40,667 bases of DNA, from positions 1-40,667 of IMG/VR virus record IMGVR_UViG_3300045988_150405; one strand, 5' to 3'. Under the pieces are notes generated by a model that searched no databases, was not told the DNA's origin, and saw only the letters and a list, made by a program, of their open reading frames with translations. A program made the translations under genes and the position numbers. This document shows, one piece after another, positions 4,381 through 40,667 of this stretch. Numbering within the stretch: the first letter of the stretch is position 1; each line of letters opens with the position of its first letter. The stretch is from a virus.

Positions 4381-5679
4381 CTATTGCTCTATTATATTGC
4401 TATTATTAAAACTTATTATTCTTTCACTTTCTCCTAGTTTCTCATAAACATTTGATATGCTTTCAACTAAGGTATCTAGTGTAGTTAAATATATATCCTT
4501 AACATCTTCATATTTTAAATACTCTGTATAGTCTTGTGATAATATTTCATCTAATCTTCCTTTTATGTCTATTATTAAATTTATATTATTATATAAGTAT
4601 CTCATTTTATCTCTAAAAGGAGCTAAATCTTTTAAATCATCTTCTAACTTTTCAATAGTTTTAGTTGTTTCTAATTTTCTATTATTAAGCATAGTTATCT
4701 CATTTGATAAATTTGCTATCTCATTTGATAATTTAGTTTTTTCACTTAATAGTTCATTTCTTTCCTTTTTAACATCTTCTGTTTTAGGTAAACTCCTAAG
4801 TTTTTCTAAGTAATCATTCTCCATAGCATACAACTCTTCTTCTTTAGCTTCAAGCTTTCTTTTAGCTTCTTCTATGTTTCCATATTGTGCCTTTAACCTG
4901 TCAGTTTCTTGTGCTAAAGATTGCTCTCTTTGTTCGTAACGTTCTACTGCTTTACTTATTTCTTCGTTTAATATCTCTTCTTTTTCAACTTCAAATTTTT
5001 CTTTAAAATTTCTTAAACTTCTCAACTCATTATATAATTTATTACTTAAGGCTTTTTGCTCTTTTTCCATTACATCTTTAATACTTATACCTTCTTTATC
5101 AGCTTCTTTTTCTAATTCGTTATATTCTTTCTTTAATTTATTGTAATTTACTATTGCCTTATCTAATTCCCTATAATTTAAGTCCTTATTCTTTTTGCAT
5201 GGGTTCAATGCATTTTCCTTGTGGTTTAAGTTTAAAAAGTCCTCTATTTTAAAGTACTCATCCTCTGTACTAAGCAATCTATTTAATATACCATAACCCC
5301 TGGCACTTTTTGGCATAGTTTCAATTCTTTCTTTAGTATAATTTGTACATACATTTATCAACCCATATATAGCTGTAGTTGATAATCCATAAGTATTTCT
5401 ACTGTAGGCATCAAAATCTCTGTTAGTTTCTCTTGTATATTGTGCCATACGTTCAACTTCTTCGTACTTTATATTAGTACCTTTCAATTTATTATAAATG
5501 TCTATTGTATCTCTAAAATAAATTTCCTTAGATATTTTTAGATAACCACCTAATTCAAGGTATCCATACTTAATATCTTCTATTTTATTAATAATTCTAT
5601 TATCAATTTCCTCTTGTGTTAGCATCTTAGCTTCTTCTATTTTCCCTAAAGAAACTAATTCTTTATTCATCTCACTCAT
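4381..5679 (-). CDS. Large coiled-coil protein (432 aa from the corrected start), function unknown
   Basis: The track ORF runs to 5718. However, GGAGGT followed 7 nt later by ATG supports a start at MSEMNKEL (5679), overlapping the stop of the upstream gene by 8 nt. About 200 aa of the central/C-terminal part is E/K/L-rich coiled coil. No P-loop seen. Confidence 0.65.
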   Translation of the reverse strand: MSEMNKELVSLGKIEEAKMLTQEEIDNRIINKIEDIKYGYLELGGYLKISKEIYFRDTIDIYNKLKGTNIKYEEVERMAQYTRETNRDFDAYSRNTYGLSTTAIYGLINVCTNYTKERIETMPKSARGYGILNRLLSTEDEYFKIEDFLNLNHKENALNPCKKNKDLNYRELDKAIVNYNKLKKEYNELEKEADKEGISIKDVMEKEQKALSNKLYNELRSLRNFKEKFEVEKEEILNEEISKAVERYEQREQSLAQETDRLKAQYGNIEEAKRKLEAKEEELYAMENDYLEKLRSLPKTEDVKKERNELLSEKTKLSNEIANLSNEITMLNNRKLETTKTIEKLEDDLKDLAPFRDKMRYLYNNINLIIDIKGRLDEILSQDYTEYLKYEDVKDIYLTTLDTLVESISNVYEKLGESERIISFNNSNIIEQ

Positions 5680-6820: not shown

Positions 6821-7002
6821 CTTATCCCCCTACTTTTCCATTTATTCTTCATTTCCAACTCTTTTATATATTTGTCAAATTCTTCTTTGCTCATACTTAT
6901 ATTTTTAACTTCAGCTTCTTTATATGCTTTTTCATATGTATATTTCAATTCATTATTTATATTGTGTCCCCATTGACTTACTTCTAATCTTCCCATATCC
7001 AT
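6817..7002 (-). CDS. Hypothetical protein (61 aa)
   Basis: ORF on the coding strand overlapping the 3' end of the primase-helicase gene. Confidence 0.5.
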   Translation of the reverse strand: MDMGRLEVSQWGHNINNELKYTYEKAYKEAEVKNISMSKEEFDKYIKELEMKNKWKSRGIR

Positions 7003-8822
7003 TCCCCTTCTATTTGTTCAAATTCTTCAAGTAAATAATTTACCTCTAACTCTTCTCCATTACCATTTTTTTTATAAAACCTTCTTCTGTCTTTATCGAA
7101 TAATAAAGCAGTATCTAATCTAGTACCCATATATCTATCTTTGTCTATTGAAAATAAAGTATGTTTATCTATTTTATTACCTTCTTCATCTTCTTCTTTT
7201 ATTCTTTGAACTAGCATTACATAATCTGCTAAGTTAGTTATATTAGCTGATCCACTTATATCAGATTTATCAAGTCCAGTTTGACCGTTCTGTGCTTTTC
7301 TTGGATGTGCTACAAGATGAACTATTGCATTATATTTTTTAGCGAAGCTTTTTAATTTTTTCACTATTTCAGTTTGATTTCTTAATTCTTCTTTCTCATC
7401 ATTTTCAACTACCATTAAATTATCAATGCAAAATACTTTTACGCCGTATCTTTTAGCCATTATCTCCATTTTGCACATAATAGCATTTAAGCTATAATCT
7501 TCTTCTGTATATAAATAGAATTTATCTTCCAAATAATCATCTATTCTACTAATTGCCTTTGATGAAATCTTTTTATACTTATACCCTTTTTTATTCGTAA
7601 ACTCTAATAAATCACCTTCATTTGCAAGTGTATCTAAAAGCCAACCCTTAGCATTACTTTCCGTAAGTTCTCCACTAAATAAAAACACCTTATATCCTTG
7701 TCTTATGCTTTCTCCTATAAAGAATTGATTTAATATAGTTGACTTACCTTCCCCAGTTCTTCCAGTTATAACATTTAAGCTTCCTAAAGGCATACCTATA
7801 ATTTCATCATCTATTGCACCTATACCCAATTGAATTGTTTCGGCTTCATATATATTAAAAGTTGATATTTGTTTAGTGCTTTTAACTCCATCTATTAAAG
7901 GTGTAGAAGCTTTTTCAAATTGCTTTAATACTGCTAATTTACCATACTTGAATAATATTTCATTTATATCGTTGCATATATCTGAATAAACTATTTTTAC
8001 AGTTTTGTTAGGCAATCTGTTAAATACTTCTTTTACTCCTTCTTTTCCTGCTTCGTCATTATCATACCAAAGAATAATTTCTTCAAATTGCTCTAACCAA
8101 GTCCAGTTAGTTGTGATCCATTCGGTAGACTTACAACCAGTTGGAACTGATACTGCATTTTTAATCCCACTTTCAATAAGACTTAAACAGTCAAATTCAC
8201 CTTCGCATATTACCAATGGTTTAGTTATATCTGCTTTATCCATTAAGTATAAAGTATTTATATTAGTTTCAGCTTCAAACCAAGTCTTTAATTGTTTTTT
8301 ATTTTTATCTATCTTGTAGCTAGGTCTATATTTATTTGTTATATGTTCTCCTAGTTCATTTTTATAAACAAATACTATATTACCTTTATTGTCTTCTTTA
8401 ACATCTGCATATTTTATTGTATTTTCGCTTATACACCTTTTATTTATATATGAAATAGATTTAGAAATGTTATTCTGATGTACTGTAGGAGGTTTTATAG
8501 CCTTTCTTTCTGTATTAATGATTAATTTATCAGTAGATATATCAAAATCGCTTACAATTGATTTTACGGCTTCTATAAATGATTTATTATAATATTCTTG
8601 GTAATGATTAAATATATCGTAAGTATGACCACAACTAAAGCATCTAAATTTTTTAGCTTTCATATCAAAACTCATACTTGAAACTTTTTCATTATGATTA
8701 AAACACAAACACTTGTTACTCTTATCTAACTTTAATCCCAAATCAGAAGCTATTTTATTTTTAACTTCTTCTGCTCTTATTTGATTTTTTATATCATCAA
8801 TTATTTTTTTTATATTCATCAT
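6984..8822 (-). CDS. Bifunctional DNA primase-helicase (T7 gp4-like)
   Basis: Contains a CHC2 zinc finger (CLCFNHNEK...CFSCGHTYD), a TOPRIM domain (VICEGEFDCLSL...WYDNDEAGK), and a DnaB/RecA-type Walker A ITGRTGEGKST with Walker B VFCIDNL. Confidence 0.85.
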   Translation of the reverse strand: MMNIKKIIDDIKNQIRAEEVKNKIASDLGLKLDKSNKCLCFNHNEKVSSMSFDMKAKKFRCFSCGHTYDIFNHYQEYYNKSFIEAVKSIVSDFDISTDKLIINTERKAIKPPTVHQNNISKSISYINKRCISENTIKYADVKEDNKGNIVFVYKNELGEHITNKYRPSYKIDKNKKQLKTWFEAETNINTLYLMDKADITKPLVICEGEFDCLSLIESGIKNAVSVPTGCKSTEWITTNWTWLEQFEEIILWYDNDEAGKEGVKEVFNRLPNKTVKIVYSDICNDINEILFKYGKLAVLKQFEKASTPLIDGVKSTKQISTFNIYEAETIQLGIGAIDDEIIGMPLGSLNVITGRTGEGKSTILNQFFIGESIRQGYKVFLFSGELTESNAKGWLLDTLANEGDLLEFTNKKGYKYKKISSKAISRIDDYLEDKFYLYTEEDYSLNAIMCKMEIMAKRYGVKVFCIDNLMVVENDEKEELRNQTEIVKKLKSFAKKYNAIVHLVAHPRKAQNGQTGLDKSDISGSANITNLADYVMLVQRIKEEDEEGNKIDKHTLFSIDKDRYMGTRLDTALLFDKDRRRFYKKNGNGEELEVNYLLEEFEQIEGEWIWED

Positions 8823-9556
8823 ACCATTTTTCTCCCACTTGAATATTTTTGAGTATTATTACATATACTAGGATTAACTTTAATATTTTTGTTTTCAGCA
8901 CCTACTGCAATAGGTGTTTTTTTATTTGCTTCATTTAGATAATTTTCAAATTTAGTTCCAAATAAAGTTGCTGGTCTTAAATATTTTTCAAAATCTGTTC
9001 CTAACCATTCCCTACTTTTACTATCAATAACTTTCTTAAAATCTTCTACTACATATCCTTCTTTTACTCTAGCATTTATAAAACTTTGAGTATTTTTAGT
9101 AGTTGCCCTGTAATTAGTAGAAGCTTTTTTGTTTAAATAATCTATAACTAAACTATATATATTATTATTATTTTCTTTTTTCTTTGATAGTGTTGTTACA
9201 TTGTTGTTAGATTGTTGTTGCTTATCACCTTCAACCTGTTGCAATTGCTCGCTTTTATTTGTTACATTGTTGTTAAATAATTGTTGCTTAATTGTTATTT
9301 TTAAAGTGCTTTCTTTTCCCTTACTCCCACTTGTTAAAAATTCAATATATCCTTTTTTTTCAAGGTTTTTAAGTATAGTCCTAACTTTTTGAGTTGTTAA
9401 TCCTAATACTTTATCAGAACTTGCAACTAATTGACCTACTGTATATCCTGTTATATTAGTGTTAAAATTTGAATACCTATACAACAATATTAAAATTTCT
9501 CTTTCATATATATTCATGTCTTTTTGGTCTATTGGTATAAGCCCATATCTTTTCAT
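8819..9556 (-). CDS. Phage replisome organizer / DnaD-domain replication initiator
   Basis: N-terminal winged-helix (LTTQKVRTILKNLEKKGYIEF), a Q/N-rich linker, and a C-terminal DnaD/DnaB_2-like repeat (YLNKKASTNYRATTKNTQSFINARVKEGYVVEDFKKVID...YLRPATLFGTKFENYL). The ATGA overlap couples it to the primase-helicase. Confidence 0.75.
   Translation of the reverse strand: MKRYGLIPIDQKDMNIYEREILILLYRYSNFNTNITGYTVGQLVASSDKVLGLTTQKVRTILKNLEKKGYIEFLTSGSKGKESTLKITIKQQLFNNNVTNKSEQLQQVEGDKQQQSNNNVTTLSKKKENNNNIYSLVIDYLNKKASTNYRATTKNTQSFINARVKEGYVVEDFKKVIDSKSREWLGTDFEKYLRPATLFGTKFENYLNEANKKTPIAVGAENKNIKVNPSICNNTQKYSSGRKMV
9180..9290. repeat. Iteron cluster inside the organizer gene (candidate phage ori)
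   Basis: At least five units of about 11 bp, TnTAACAACAA on the minus strand (TTGTTGTTAnA on plus). Blocks 9180-9219 and 9253-9275 recur at 33971-34010 (39/40) and 34043-34065 (23/23). Confidence 0.6.
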
Positions 9557-9896: not shown

Positions 9897-10079
9897 TTAT
9901 TTTACTATATATTCTTTTAAAGAATAAGAATTTACTTCAAATCCATAGATTTTCTCATCTCTTAATTCCAACTCTTTCTTAGCTTTTTCTGCATCACTTC
10001 TGTTGCTAAAAATATCTAATATATGATACCCATCACAATCATCGCAGTCATAAAATCTTAATACATACACAATATTCAT
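9897..10079 (-). CDS. Hypothetical protein (60 aa)
   Basis: ORF on the coding strand with a 4-nt overlap with the upstream nuclease gene. Confidence 0.55.
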   Translation of the reverse strand: MNIVYVLRFYDCDDCDGYHILDIFSNRSDAEKAKKELELRDEKIYGFEVNSYSLKEYIVK

Positions 10080-10708
10080 ATTTCTTTCTCCATATTCTTA
10101 AGATATTCTTTGCAGTAATAAAACAATAAATCGTGTATTATTCTTGCACTATCTTTTTTATTGCAATACCAAACATTAATATTGTATCTGTTGCATAAGC
10201 TTAAAAACATACTCATAAAACTCTTAGGATTTATTTTTGAAGCCTTGTCGTATCTAAAATGCTTACTACTTAATATTTTGCTTATAGCATCCTCTGTTTC
10301 TATTAGTAAGTGCATTTTTATACCTAATTCTTTCGCTCTTAAAAATTCTCTTTCTATCCTTGTAAGTCCGTTTTCGTCTTTGCTTTTTGAATCATATAAG
10401 TTCGATGCAAGTTCATTCAAATCTTTTTTTCTTTCTATAACTATTTTATCTTGAAAATTAACAACTTCGCCACTTGGTAGTTGTACTGCTATAGTATAAT
10501 CTCCAATTTTCAAGCCTTTTTCTTGAATATAATATTTAACTGGATCACTATATTTACTTTTAATCCCTCGGTACATATCATGGTGTGAGGGCTTAAGTTC
10601 AAATCCTTCATCAAATTTATTTAGTATATGATTTATAGATTTCTCACGGCTATCTACAACAACCTTATAAGCACATTTTTTTATATCAATTCCTTTTTTA
10701 TCCCCCAT
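10076..10708 (-). CDS. ERCC4/XPF-Mus81-type (PD-(D/E)XK) nuclease
   Basis: VVVDSREKS...KIGDYTIAV...VIERKKDLNELASNL matches the ERCC4 domain core (VD.RE...GDY...ERK...DL..S). Confidence 0.65.
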   Translation of the reverse strand: MGDKKGIDIKKCAYKVVVDSREKSINHILNKFDEGFELKPSHHDMYRGIKSKYSDPVKYYIQEKGLKIGDYTIAVQLPSGEVVNFQDKIVIERKKDLNELASNLYDSKSKDENGLTRIEREFLRAKELGIKMHLLIETEDAISKILSSKHFRYDKASKINPKSFMSMFLSLCNRYNINVWYCNKKDSARIIHDLLFYYCKEYLKNMEKEI

Positions 10709-10719
10709 ATTGAACCCCC

Positions 10720-10818
10720 CTAATTATGTCTATAAAATTTAATAGCTTCTAATACTAAATAAACTACAAATAAATCAAATCCTATTGTCATTAAAATTAA
10801 GTCATTAAATATATTCAT
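10720..10818 (-). CDS. Small membrane peptide (32 aa)
   Basis: Not in the track. GGGGGAAG RBS. Translation: MNIFNDLILMTIGFDLFVVYLVLEAIKFYRHN. Confidence 0.4.
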   Translation of the reverse strand: MNIFNDLILMTIGFDLFVVYLVLEAIKFYRHN

Positions 10819-10849
10819 ACTTCCCCCATATTACAGAAAATAAGGGCAA

Positions 10850-11476
10850 TTAAGCCCCTAAATTATTTTTTAATCCTTCTATTTCATCACATATAGCATT
10901 ATACTTGCTCATTGTTATATCCTTACTACTATCAAAACCATGCCCTGCTATAATATCTTTTACAACTGCAACATCTATTCCTTTAGCAATTACATTAAGC
11001 CTATTTCTTTGTGCTTCTGATATTAATCTATCAGCTGAATAACTTTTATTATTAAGTTTAGATTTTTTATCTTCTTCACTTGTAGATTTATTAGCATCAT
11101 CATCTTCGCCAGTATTTAAGTTAAGTATTGCTTGGTAACTATATCTTCTCATATAACTTATAATACTTCCTGCTTGTTGTGGATCATTTGCTTTAGCTGG
11201 TTTCATAAATATAGGCTCACTTTCTATAAATTCTCCACTTTCATGTATTAATAATGTTTGTATTCCAATACTCCCATCTTCTTTAGATAAAGGACTTTGC
11301 ATAACTACTAAACCATTTTCTTGTAATATAGGTCTTGTTGCTTCTATCAGCTTATCAAGTGTTACATAGTTGCTTTTGAAAAATGGATTTTTAGCATCCT
11401 TTGCTATTTTTGAAACTTCACTATTAAATTTTACTAAAGATATTGCTAATTTGCTTATACTTTCACTTCTATTCAT
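10850..11476 (-). CDS. ERF-family single-strand annealing recombinase
   Basis: SLVKFNSEVSKIAKDAKNPFFKSNYVTLDKLIEATRPILQENGL...QTLLIHESGE...MRRYSYQAILNL fits the ERF superfamily pattern. It is adjacent to the nuclease, as in phage recombination modules. Confidence 0.7.
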   Translation of the reverse strand: MNRSESISKLAISLVKFNSEVSKIAKDAKNPFFKSNYVTLDKLIEATRPILQENGLVVMQSPLSKEDGSIGIQTLLIHESGEFIESEPIFMKPAKANDPQQAGSIISYMRRYSYQAILNLNTGEDDDANKSTSEEDKKSKLNNKSYSADRLISEAQRNRLNVIAKGIDVAVVKDIIAGHGFDSSKDITMSKYNAICDEIEGLKNNLGA

Positions 11477-17975: not shown

Positions 17976-18006
17976 TGTTTTTTATTAAAAGATATTTTTT
18001 ATTATT

Positions 18007-18023
18007 TATATATATATATATAT
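18007..18023. repeat. (TA)8 dinucleotide tract in an AT-rich stretch (candidate DNA-unwinding element)
   Basis: TATATATATATATATAT read directly. The flanks are almost pure A/T. Confidence 0.8.
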
Positions 18024-18063
18024 CTATAATAACTTCCCTATAATAACTTATCTATCTTTGTTT

Positions 18064-18168
18064 AATTCCACGGAATGTACCCCGTCAATTCCACGGAATG
18101 TACCCCGTCAATTCCACGGAATGTGTGGGTATTATATTTTTACTTATACCGTCAATTCCACGGAACGT
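18064..18168. repeat. Four iterons AATTCCACGGAA(T/C)GT
   Basis: Copies start at about 18064, 18087, 18110 and 18154. The first three are spaced exactly 23 bp within the unit GTACCCCGTCAATTCCACGGAAT. The core is the inverted repeat ATTCC-N2-GGAAT. Confidence 0.85.
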
Positions 18169-18206
18169 GTGCAGTATTTTCAACGGTTTAAGCTATAAAC
18201 AATATT

Positions 18207-18233
18207 TGTGGATTATGTGGATTGTGTGGATAA
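18207..18233. promoter_or_regulatory. Three tandem DnaA-box-like 9-mers
   Basis: TGTGGATTA TGTGGATTG TGTGGATAA. The third is the exact reverse complement of TTATCCACA. The others have 1 and 2 mismatches. Confidence 0.7.
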
Positions 18234-33221: not shown

Positions 33222-33809
33222 TTATTTTCTTAAACTGTTATTTCTTATAGCATCCATAAATGCACTTTGGCTGCTGCCACTATTTTCTGTTTGGTTATTT
33301 CTACCAAAATTACCTAGTCCACCAGTATTTTGTGGAGCAGTATCTAAATCGAATAAATATGAAGCATCTTTTTGTAAAGCCTCTATTTGCTCTTGTAAGC
33401 CTTCAAACTTGCCTTCTTGATACTTTATACTATCCATATCTAATAAAGCCTTTAGCGCCTTATTATTTTTAGATTTAGCATTAGTTAGTGCACCTTCTAG
33501 TGCAAAGTTGAACTGTAGCCTATCCATTTCTTGTTTATGGTTAGTTTCAAGTTCTTTATTTGAAAGTTGCAACTGTTCAACCAGCTTATTTAATGCTTCT
33601 ACATCAGCATTGTTTTTAGTTAATTCTTCTAGTTGTTTTTGATAAGTCTTTGAAGCTTCTTCTAATTGCTTCTTTTGTTCTTGTAGTTTGTTATATCTAA
33701 CATCTACATTTTCAAGATTAGTAGTGTATATTTTAGCTTCACCCATAGCTTTTACTATCTCATTAGCTTTATCTTCTTCTACACCACATTTTTTTAATAC
33801 TTCTAACAT
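33222..33809 (-). CDS. Scaffolding protein (GP20-like)
   Basis: 195 aa, a helical E/K/Q-rich protein between the minor head and capsid genes. N-terminal MLEVLKKCGVEEDKANEIVKAMGE resembles Phage_GP20. Confidence 0.7.
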   Translation of the reverse strand: MLEVLKKCGVEEDKANEIVKAMGEAKIYTTNLENVDVRYNKLQEQKKQLEEASKTYQKQLEELTKNNADVEALNKLVEQLQLSNKELETNHKQEMDRLQFNFALEGALTNAKSKNNKALKALLDMDSIKYQEGKFEGLQEQIEALQKDASYLFDLDTAPQNTGGLGNFGRNNQTENSGSSQSAFMDAIRNNSLRK

Positions 33810-33905
33810 GATTTGTCCTCCATAACTTTTTTTACAAGATTATACTTGATAGAGTTTTTTCTATTTGTTCTTTTACATCTGCAATAAGAAAGTAAAAAGA
33901 TGGTT

Positions 33906-33943
33906 AAAAATAAAAAACTTTTACCAAAATTAATCAGTAAAAG
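33906..33943 (-). terminator. Intrinsic terminator-like hairpin inside the late operon
   Basis: Minus strand CTTTTAC, a 12-nt loop and GTAAAAG, followed by TTTTTTATTTTT. Confidence 0.45.
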
Positions 33944-33970
33944 CACTATATAATATATATTTATTCTTTA

Positions 33971-34090
33971 TTCTTTGATAGTGTTGTTAGATTGTTGTTA
34001 GATTGTTGTTAGCAAATCTCTGCAACCATTGAAAACACTACGTTTTATTTGTTACATTGTTGTTAGATTGTTGTTAGTTGTTGTTAATTA
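33971..34090. repeat. Non-coding second copy of the organizer-gene iteron block
   Basis: Seven units of about 11 bp, TTGTTGTTAnA. 33971-34010 matches 9180-9219 (39/40) and 34043-34065 matches 9253-9275 (23/23). Stops occur in all frames. Confidence 0.85.
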
Positions 34091-34115
34091 ATTTTTTTAT
34101 AATTGTTAATAGTTA

Positions 34116-35051
34116 TTAAGCTATAAATTCACTTCCATACTTACCAAGCCATTTATCAAGTTTTTCATTCTCTTCTCCATCTATCCAACTTCTAAGTTCT
34201 TCACCTATTTCATCAAAACTCATATTAATAACTGGTACAGTAGTACATAAACCATTTGGATGGTCTAATGGTAAATTATTAACAGTATATATTTGCCCAT
34301 TTCTACTGTTGCACAAATCACAAGTTCTATGCGAGTTAGAGGATAACCATTGTATACCTTCAATGTATGGGTTTTTCTTGCAACTTCTCTTTTGTGCCAT
34401 TTGATAAGCATGATTTATAGATGTCCTTGCTAATCTTTGAGCATTATAATCTATTTTTTTATTAGTTTTAGGATATACTTTACACCAATCCCATTCTTTT
34501 TTAGCATTAGGATTGACATATATTTCTAAATCTTTAGCTACTTCATAGATACTTTTCTTATTAGCAATACCTTCTGCTATTATATAATCAATATCTTTAT
34601 CAAAATGTTTAGTATAAGCCCATATTCTTTCACTAAGTCCTGCTCTATCCTTGTATGCTTTACCGAAAACTATTTCATTCATAGCTTTTTTAGGAATTTT
34701 AGCAAACATATCTCTAAAAGTCGGTTCTAACCCTAAATTATATTGATTATTTATTTCCATAAAAAAATCCAGTTGAGTATTAGATCCTAAACTGGAAGCT
34801 TCTAGCATATTTTTCTTGATAACTGTATTTATTTTCTTTTGCGATGCCCTAAATTCGCTTTTAATTTCCTCTCTAAGCTCTTCTAAATATCTTTTTGATA
34901 AAGAGTTAGGGTTAGCTTTAGAAATCTTTTTAGATACCTTTAAATAGATTTCATTGTATATCTTTAAAATTTCTTTCTTTTGTTTTTTAACTAATCTTAT
35001 TTTTTTCCTTTGACTTTCTTTAACTAATTTTAAATAATCTTTACTAGCCAT
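34116..35051 (-). CDS. Minor head protein (SPP1 gp7 / Mu F-like head morphogenesis)
   Basis: C-terminal NHAYQMAQ...SNSHRTCDLCNSRNGQIY...LPLDHPNGLCTTVPV matches the gp7-family conserved core. Confidence 0.8.
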   Translation of the reverse strand: MASKDYLKLVKESQRKKIRLVKKQKKEILKIYNEIYLKVSKKISKANPNSLSKRYLEELREEIKSEFRASQKKINTVIKKNMLEASSLGSNTQLDFFMEINNQYNLGLEPTFRDMFAKIPKKAMNEIVFGKAYKDRAGLSERIWAYTKHFDKDIDYIIAEGIANKKSIYEVAKDLEIYVNPNAKKEWDWCKVYPKTNKKIDYNAQRLARTSINHAYQMAQKRSCKKNPYIEGIQWLSSNSHRTCDLCNSRNGQIYTVNNLPLDHPNGLCTTVPVINMSFDEIGEELRSWIDGEENEKLDKWLGKYGSEFIA

Positions 35052-40582: not shown

Positions 40583-40667
40583 ATTTTTTTTTACATTTTG
40601 AAAGTATTGAATTTACTGCTTTTCGTAAAATTCATAATACAATTACTTTTATGTCTTTTAAAATTAA
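40583..40667. repeat. Terminal direct repeat, right copy (identical to 1-85)
   Basis: 85/85 nt identical to the start of the window. Confidence 0.95.

Follow-up and report, generated by a model that had tools for sequence, protein, structure and literature searches.

The DNA analysed here (hereafter the window) spans 40,667 nt and represents a complete virus record of IMG/VR; its G+C content is 28%, and essentially all of its genes are on the minus strand. Identical copies of an 85-nt direct repeat occupy its two ends (1-85 and 40583-40667), indicating that the genome is complete, either circularly closed or terminally redundant, with a unique length of 40,582 nt. No cultured phage was found to be close to it: the best matches to its head genes come from Clostridium, Clostridioides and Terrisporobacter phages, with a nucleotide identity of only 66-73%, and this over parts of the sequence. 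A clostridial host is probable, in view of the 28% G+C and of the hosts of the nearest cultured phages, Clostridium or Terrisporobacter. The features of the replication and head regions that concern us are the following:

6984..8822, minus strand: primase-helicase fusion (zinc ribbon, Toprim, DnaB_C), overlapping the organizer stop codon
8819..9556, minus strand: replisome organizer/initiator, 245 aa (PF09524 at 3e-29; phrog_428 at 2.8e-46)
9156..9299, minus strand: origin-like block within the organizer gene, encoding the linker QQLFNNNVTNKSEQLQQVEGDKQQQSNNNVTTLSKKKENNNN
10076..11476, minus strand: ERCC4-type nuclease and Erf-like annealing protein
33222..33809, minus strand: head scaffolding gene, downstream flank of the gap, equivalent of SPP1 gene 11 (PF06810 at 2.1e-35, phrog_194)
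33810..33903, minus strand: conserved scaffold-capsid leader (TTGCAGATGTAAAAGAACAAAT..., small hairpin, ribosome-binding site)
33904..33944, minus strand: intrinsic terminator of the terminase-portal-Mu-F transcript (11-bp stem, 6-nt loop, then UUUUUUAUUUUU)
33947..34090, minus strand: second, non-coding copy of the block, matching SPP1 oriR in position and design
34116..35051, minus strand: Mu-F-like minor head gene, upstream flank of the gap, equivalent of SPP1 gene 7 (PF04233, phrog_1657)

The original prediction had named the genes from the sequence alone, and Pfam and PHROG matches bear out all of these annotations (organizer, Phg_2220_C/phrog_428; Mu-F; PF06810 scaffold; SPP1-type portal). 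The organizer consists of an N-terminal winged-helix domain, a Q/N-rich linker and the Phg_2220_C domain, and is homologous to G38P of SPP1, with 30% identity over aa 22-212 (E 5e-13, tblastn against SPP1 gene 38). Upstream of its gene are those of an HTH regulator, the ERCC4-type nuclease and the Erf annealing protein; by analogy, the last two may provide recombination functions of the kind used for restart after fork arrest in the SPP1 model. The primase-helicase fusion is presumed to be the enzyme loaded at the origin or origins. In the head region, the Mu-F gene is preceded upstream by the portal (SPP1 gp6 type) and terminase genes. The gap that separates it from the scaffold gene (33810-34115, 306 nt) had been taken as non-coding, and this holds: five small ORFs of 20-47 aa overlap it, none of them conserved in relatives, and no Rfam match was found in 33600-34300.

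A repeat block common to the organizer gene and the gap

A cluster of short repeats that encodes the organizer linker had been reported to recur in the gap in two pieces, and reading the sequence again gave the same counts, 39/40 for 33971-34010 versus 9180-9219 and 23/23 for 34043-34065 versus 9253-9275. Comparison of the window with itself revealed that the repeated region is wider than first described and corresponds to 9156-9299 in the gene and 33947-34090 in the gap. Identity between 9156-9219 and 33947-34010 is 88% (repeat search); over the whole block, mean identity is 83% with MAFFT, and BLAST within the record matches 9156-9299 to the gap block at 81% (E 3.6e-28, ~145 nt). The two copies are direct repeats and collinear, in the order cluster, spacer, cluster, AT-rich tail. 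Read on the coding (minus) strand, a block starts with cluster A, followed by a spacer of ~35 nt, then by the three units of cluster B, the last being TAACAACACTA, and ends with the tail TCAAAGAAWAAAGAA and an (A/T)n stretch. The parts of the two copies, all on the minus strand, are as follows:

~9256-9297, minus strand: in-gene repeat cluster A
9221-9255, minus strand: in-gene spacer
9190-9220, minus strand: in-gene repeat cluster B
9156-9189, minus strand: in-gene AT-rich tail
34047..34088, minus strand: gap cluster A, three full TAACAACAA units and the degenerate TAACAAATAAA
34026..34046, minus strand: conserved spacer box AAAACGTAGTGTTTTCAATGG between the clusters
33981..34011, minus strand: gap cluster B (TAACAACAATC, TAACAACAATC, TAACAACACTA, 11-nt spacing)
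33947..33980, minus strand: gap AT-rich tail TCAAAGAATAAAGAATAAATATATATTATATAG, candidate DNA-unwinding element

The extra tandem units announced for the gap are present, with six full units there and three in the gene. The repeat is real and far beyond chance: the exact word TTGTTGTTA occurs seven times in the 40.7-kb window, where 1.0 is expected, all seven occurrences fall inside the two blocks (those of gap cluster A at 34057, 34068 and 34078 on the plus strand), and none of 100 shuffled sequences reaches seven. Units are spaced by 11, 54, 11 and 10 nt in the gap, and by 11 and 55 nt in the gene before the AT-rich tail, which in both blocks amounts to roughly whole helical turns. The sequence of the tail recurs in the gene copy, and the gap copies of the related records G001-G004 and G006 keep it too; in a genome of 28% G+C, a high A+T content by itself says little for an unwinding element.

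An origin of the DnaA-dependent plasmid or chromosome type has DnaA boxes beside its repeats, and no TTATCCACA-like site (up to one mismatch) was found within either block. The sole cluster of DnaA boxes in the window, at 18207-18233, belongs to a different module. This separate origin-like module (18003-18233) comprises a (TA)n tract, 2.7 perfect copies of a 23-nt repeat and three DnaA-box-like sites, and adjoins the gene of a 313-aa protein devoid of Pfam or PHROG match. Together with the two blocks, it brings the origin-like regions of this phage to as many as three.

Transcription signals around the gap copy

Along the direction of transcription, the gap contains the Mu-F stop codon, the repeat block, a hairpin followed by a U-run, the conserved leader and the scaffold ribosome-binding site, which places the block upstream of the terminator, in the 3' untranslated part of the terminase-portal-Mu-F transcript. 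The terminator-like hairpin that had been noticed by eye is supported by folding, with an 11-bp stem (33917-33944, minus strand), a U-run, -9.7 kcal/mol and z = -2.8. It is kept in seven relatives, with G.U pairs that are workable on the minus strand only, indicating that it acts as an RNA terminator. Consensus scans of the gap returned no promoter on the minus strand and no terminator; the latter was missed because the stem is A/U-rich, with fewer than three G-C pairs, and it is folding and alignment that support it.

Relatives have the scaffold leader whether or not they carry the repeat block. The hairpin in it, immediately 5' of the ribosome-binding site, shows compensatory changes among the fragments L083-L087 (CAAG..CTTG, CGAG..CTCG, GGTGT..ACACC, GTGGT..ACCAC), and the leader may function as an RNA element or as a late promoter. 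L083 and L084 carry the block and belong to the same head-module family as the window. L085, the scaffold of which is 77% identical, has the terminator and the leader without the block in a gap of ~100 nt; thus, the block can be seen as ~190 nt inserted after the stop codon and ahead of the terminator.

This position raises the question of a site for late expression or packaging, in which the organizer, bound in the 3' untranslated region, would couple the state of replication to the transcription of head genes or to packaging. The block indeed always lies between the Mu-F stop codon and the conserved terminator and scaffold leader, with the terminase genes at most ~4.5 kb away. However, no promoter-like site of the coding strand overlaps it, and L085 and L086, which are without the block, have the same terminator and leader, so that late expression does not need it. 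Since such a role would also leave the retained AT-rich tail unexplained, we regard it as very improbable.

Conservation and co-variation in related phages

To place the block in a wider context, we searched whole records sharing the organizer at 49-73% identity. The in-gene block recurs in the Mu-F/scaffold gap in 8/8 sufficiently complete related virus records, and both copies are present in G001-G004, G006, G068 and G069. Where the distance could be measured (window, G002-G004, G006, G068, G069), the gene copy is followed by the gap copy 13-17 kb downstream, the values for G002-G004 and G006 being 13.0-13.8 kb. In G001-G004 and G006, the copy outside the gene is always found between a Phage_Mu_F gene and a scaffold gene, the latter belonging to PF14265 (DUF4355), whereas the scaffold of the window belongs to PF06810. 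When the 3.5 kb around the gap were compared between the window and G003, only a 131-nt block could be aligned, at 98.5% identity; identity between the two organizer genes is 81%. The block thus goes with the replication module and not with the head module.

Absence of the gap copy from close relatives had been named beforehand as an outcome against a second origin; the relatives with a matching initiator all keep the copy. G024 (90% complete), with a head module related to that of the window, has neither a PF09524 organizer nor the block, and the gap copy is also missing from L085, a fragment without an assigned initiator.

The repeats differ from one phage to another and agree within each phage. 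Four types, TAACAACAA, GGGCAACAA, GGTAACTAA and, with a different DNA-binding domain, GTGAAAAACCCAACT, change together at both sites. The counts of three core words in gene and gap are as follows:

Core TAACAACA: three in the gene and six in the gap of the window; also at both sites in G001 and G003, and in the gap of G002
Core GGGCAA: G004 only, four in the gene and seven in the gap
Core G[GT]TAACT: G006 only, three in the gene and four in the gap

G068 and G069, complete records of 47 and 49 kb, were found via relatives of the G003 scaffold. They encode no Phg_2220_C protein; their initiator is a 239-aa protein with an HTH_36 domain (phrog_270), and GTGAAAAACCCAACT-type repeats are present both in its gene and in the Mu-F/scaffold gap, 14.8-16.6 kb downstream. 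The initiators seen with a gap copy have at least four specificities and two different binding domains.

In addition, residues 203-239 of the window organizer (8840-8950, minus strand; NKKTPIAVGAENKNIKVNPSICNN..KY) are 68% identical to the tail of the HTH_36 initiator of G068/G069 (L382 1212-1931), and these last ~37 residues are the only part that the two proteins share. Judging from the sequences, this tail is probably the part that contacts the primase-helicase, also shared, and thus a candidate docking peptide.

Since the repeats at both copies change together, the gap block appears to be a working site rather than a leftover. Two alternatives must be weighed here. In the first, the gap array would be a copy-control locus that titrates the organizer or "handcuffs" the in-gene origin, shutting off theta initiation, and no initiation would take place in the gap. 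The incA repeats of plasmid P1 act in this way on RepA. Having the same direct repeats outside the main origin, with more full units in the gap (6) than in the gene (3), agrees with such control, and co-variation fits any function that depends on organizer binding. On the other hand, the AT-rich tail and the spacer box are kept at the sequence level, although a pure titration site has no need of them, and copy control does not predict a fixed place between two given head genes, 13-17 kb downstream. We therefore hold a copy-control locus to be rather unlikely.

In the second alternative, the block would be inert, either a partial duplication of the organizer gene (N-terminal domain and linker) in a permissive intergenic site or a recombination scar at a module boundary. 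Several relatives (G001, G002, L335, L336 and L338) still have in the gap a paralogue of the N-terminal domain, L085 is without the block, and the corresponding gap of SPP1 is a known site for extra genes (PMC6316719). However, unselected DNA would decay, and here the block is 98.5% identical between phages with unalignable flanks, is kept in two unrelated head modules and has repeats that track four initiator specificities. The paralogues thus make the remnant hypothesis an explanation of how the block arose but not of why it persists, and as an account of the present-day block we find it quite improbable.

The paralogue in question is a 92-aa ORF (G001, L090 1750-2028, minus strand; G002, L092 1135-1413, plus strand; and L335, L336 and L338, ~900-1110), which shares 36-40% identity with the N-terminal domain of the organizer (E 1e-14 to 1e-17) and ends where the repeats start. 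After this ORF come a box and a hairpin of its own, as well as private repeats absent elsewhere in the genome (TAGACAGTTGA four times in G001, TGTGATATTTA three to four times in G002), and it could encode a stand-alone origin-binding regulator. Another peculiarity concerns the neighbouring Mu-F ORF, which in some relatives (L090, L091, L122 ~6531, L339, L340) has an in-frame TGA inside a conserved PPFH-x-x-CR motif; past this codon, the frame runs for ~45 codons to the C-terminus that is encoded uninterrupted in G002 and G003. Programmed read-through or recoding may be at work there. No such TGA was seen in the Mu-F gene of the window.

The second copy is not general to the Phg_2220_C organizer family. 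Searches of 11 other records whose Phg_2220_C proteins are more distant did not reveal it, nor did a search in the late region of the cultured phage phiCD6356, which has an HK97-type head without Mu-F and gave only a weak match in its early region, and blastn retrieved no cultured relative with the block. Among phages with a more distant Phg_2220_C organizer, G012 and G013 (58 kb, 37% G+C) have a weak second copy of their in-gene repeats, of ATTACAAACAGAA type, between ORFs without Pfam or PHROG matches (L132-L137; G012 ~11240-11470 oriented, G013 ~1279-1500).

The box in the spacer is common to the gap copies with TAACAACAA, GGGCAACAA and GGTAACTAA repeats; the G068/G069 gap lacks it, and the gene copy has a degraded form, the best version being that of the gap copy. 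Its consensus is AAAAC-N-Y-AGT-R-TTTTCAATG(G), and the 20-nt box can also be written AAAACCTAGTGTTTTCAATGG. Because these three classes of gap copies share a box that the gene copies of G000-G004 lack, the gap copies would have a common origin; the repeats would then have changed in parallel at both sites, and independent recent duplications are less likely. Gene conversion between the copies, as opposed to selection, could also account for part of the co-variation.

The box is not confined to this setting. Within the window, AGTRTTTTCAAYGG occurs twice, where 0.02 is expected, in the gap (34026-34039, minus strand) and in the origin-like module at 18 kb (18173-18186, plus strand), and the 20-mer AAAACNYAGTRTTTTCAATG was found in 52 IMG/VR stretches (loci L161-L212). 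An 8-mer repeated at least three times within 110 nt accompanies 40% of 43 distinct box sites versus 3.5% of control positions, a ~11-fold difference, and the repeats that flank the box vary from lineage to lineage. It lies either beside genes for a CHC2 primase and a large helicase-like protein or between an integrase gene and a tRNA 3' fragment, the latter context suggesting the arms of attP. A reading of the box by the Phg_2220_C domain was considered and rejected, as none of the 38 other box-bearing virus records encodes this domain; a link with the 313-aa protein of the window or its neighbours was discarded as well, no homologues being found beside the box in other records. In bacterial genomes we counted at least 120 matches, many of them in coding sequence or outside Firmicutes, with flanking repeats in 4% versus 1.4% of controls; as most of these matches are without flanking repeats, the bacterial scan carries little weight. 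A literature search with the box sequence returned unrelated primer matches alone. A conserved box common to unrelated origins and attP arms suggests a host architectural factor that bends DNA. A presumed similarity links the box to the IHF consensus of enterobacteria (WATCAANNNNTTR and, upstream of it, an A-tract).

Relation to SPP1 and proposed role of the gap copy

In the Bacillus phage SPP1, the main origin, oriL, lies in the linker-coding part of gene 38, and the oriR boxes (~4876-4953) in a 336-nt gap between gene 7 (Mu-F, ending at 4728) and gene 8 (starting at 5064), after which come the extra genes 8-10 and then the scaffold gene 11. The oriR segment interrupts the conserved late gene order and is "bracketed between transcriptional signals" (PMC6316719). 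The system needs the phage proteins G38P-G40P and no DnaA, G38P has a similar affinity for oriL and oriR, and replication has been demonstrated from oriL only (PMC5737612). The role of oriR is a model, in which it stalls forks and triggers recombination-dependent concatemer synthesis (PMC3485210, PMC6316719); a role in restart has been proposed alternatively (PMC5615212).

The sequence elements of this type are found in the window: an initiator homologous to G38P, direct repeats with an AT-rich region embedded in the linker-coding part of its gene, and a non-coding copy in the late region. As in SPP1, this second copy is direct, lies beside a terminator after the Mu-F gene and before the scaffold gene, and is separated from the first across the packaging genes (~13 kb in SPP1, 15.8 kb in the window). 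Genes for an annealing protein and a nuclease are nearby in both, and DnaA boxes are absent from both arrangements, none lying near the two window blocks, which is consistent with the SPP1 system. The two phages differ in that the repeats are unrelated (AAAGACAC-type boxes in SPP1, TAACAACAA in the window), the block is downstream of the terminator in SPP1 and upstream of it in the window, and genes 8-10 occupy the SPP1 gap whereas the window gap has no extra genes. Moreover, SPP1 uses a G39P loader, a G40P helicase and a RecT-like annealing protein where the window encodes a primase-helicase fusion and Erf, and the host of the window is probably clostridial. The two-origin parallel drawn by the original prediction is thus supported at the sequence level by the G38P-homologous organizer and by a second copy in the same slot as oriR. 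Its description as an independent example should probably be changed, as homology to G38P and an identical slot point to the same design, probably of shared descent or repeatedly selected.

Other systems resemble the window in part. Lambda O/ori and the replication genes of lactococcal and streptococcal phages likewise combine repeats with an AT-rich stretch in the linker-coding part of the initiator gene, and "replication initiation O-like" is among the PHROG families matched by the G068 initiator. To our knowledge, these systems have a single origin, whereas the window has a second, non-coding copy. Plasmids provide examples of a second initiator-binding array away from the main origin (P1 incA, F incC, R6K alpha/beta/gamma), which are alike in having a distant second array and offer a possible model for control by titration or pairing. 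These arrays adjoin the rep gene, are without an unwinding element and are bound by initiators of RepA/Pi type, not of G38P type. In the literature searched, SPP1 is the only phage for which we found an oriR-type copy described.

We consider that the gap block is probably an oriR of the SPP1 type, that is, a second cis binding array for the organizer of the phage, paired with an in-gene "oriL". The constant position, the survival of a head-module swap, the near-identity between unalignable flanks and the four concordant changes of specificity form, as far as sequences can tell, the pattern expected of a cis site read by the DNA-binding domain of the initiator. The winged-helix domain of the organizer would bind the 11-nt TAACAACAA units, six full and one degenerate, in two clusters ~five helical turns apart, with the conserved box between them probably helping to bend the DNA. 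The AT-rich tail would be the place of duplex opening, and the C-terminal part of the organizer would bring in the primase-helicase encoded next door. Located ~16 kb downstream of the in-gene origin, the site would be used once early theta replication has begun, either to provide another place for loading or restart or, held in a tight complex, to halt forks that arrive from the in-gene origin; the arrested forks would then pass replication on to the Erf and nuclease recombination functions, yielding concatemers for packaging. That the gap copy keeps the AT-rich tail and the best spacer box tilts the interpretation toward a site of opening and helicase loading (origin or restart) rather than one that does no more than absorb protein. 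By analogy with the proposal for SPP1, an array so firmly occupied would act as a fork barrier too, and one role does not preclude the other. The separate module at 18 kb counts against an oriR-type site, since a phage so equipped has no obvious need of a further one.

Knowledge of the second SPP1 origin goes back ~30 years, and the role of this origin as a fork barrier that triggers concatemer synthesis is still a model from one phage. The kind of arrangement is therefore already known, and what is new is the comparative evidence: the same oriL/oriR design is now seen in distant, uncultured phages of low G+C content, where it survived the swap of a whole head module, and the co-changing repeats argue that the late-region copy is selected and read by the initiator, beyond what SPP1 alone gives. 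The TAACAACAA, GGGCAACAA, GGTAACTAA and GTGAAAAACCCAACT repeats are natural specificity variants for binding and swap experiments, and in annotation, a long gap after Mu-F that repeats part of the initiator gene may be labelled as an oriR-type site. More tentatively, and with somewhat more doubt than confidence, we propose that the Mu-F/scaffold gap is a dedicated, selected slot in which a broad group of Firmicutes siphoviruses, ranging from SPP1 to uncultured clostridial phages, would maintain a second copy of the origin proper to each replication module, swapped or co-evolving with initiator specificity and built round a 20-nt box that is also found in other phage origins and at attP arms and is perhaps read by a host bending factor. 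If this were true, a second origin or barrier in the head region would be a general feature, mechanistically required in the switch from theta replication to concatemers, and not a peculiarity of SPP1.
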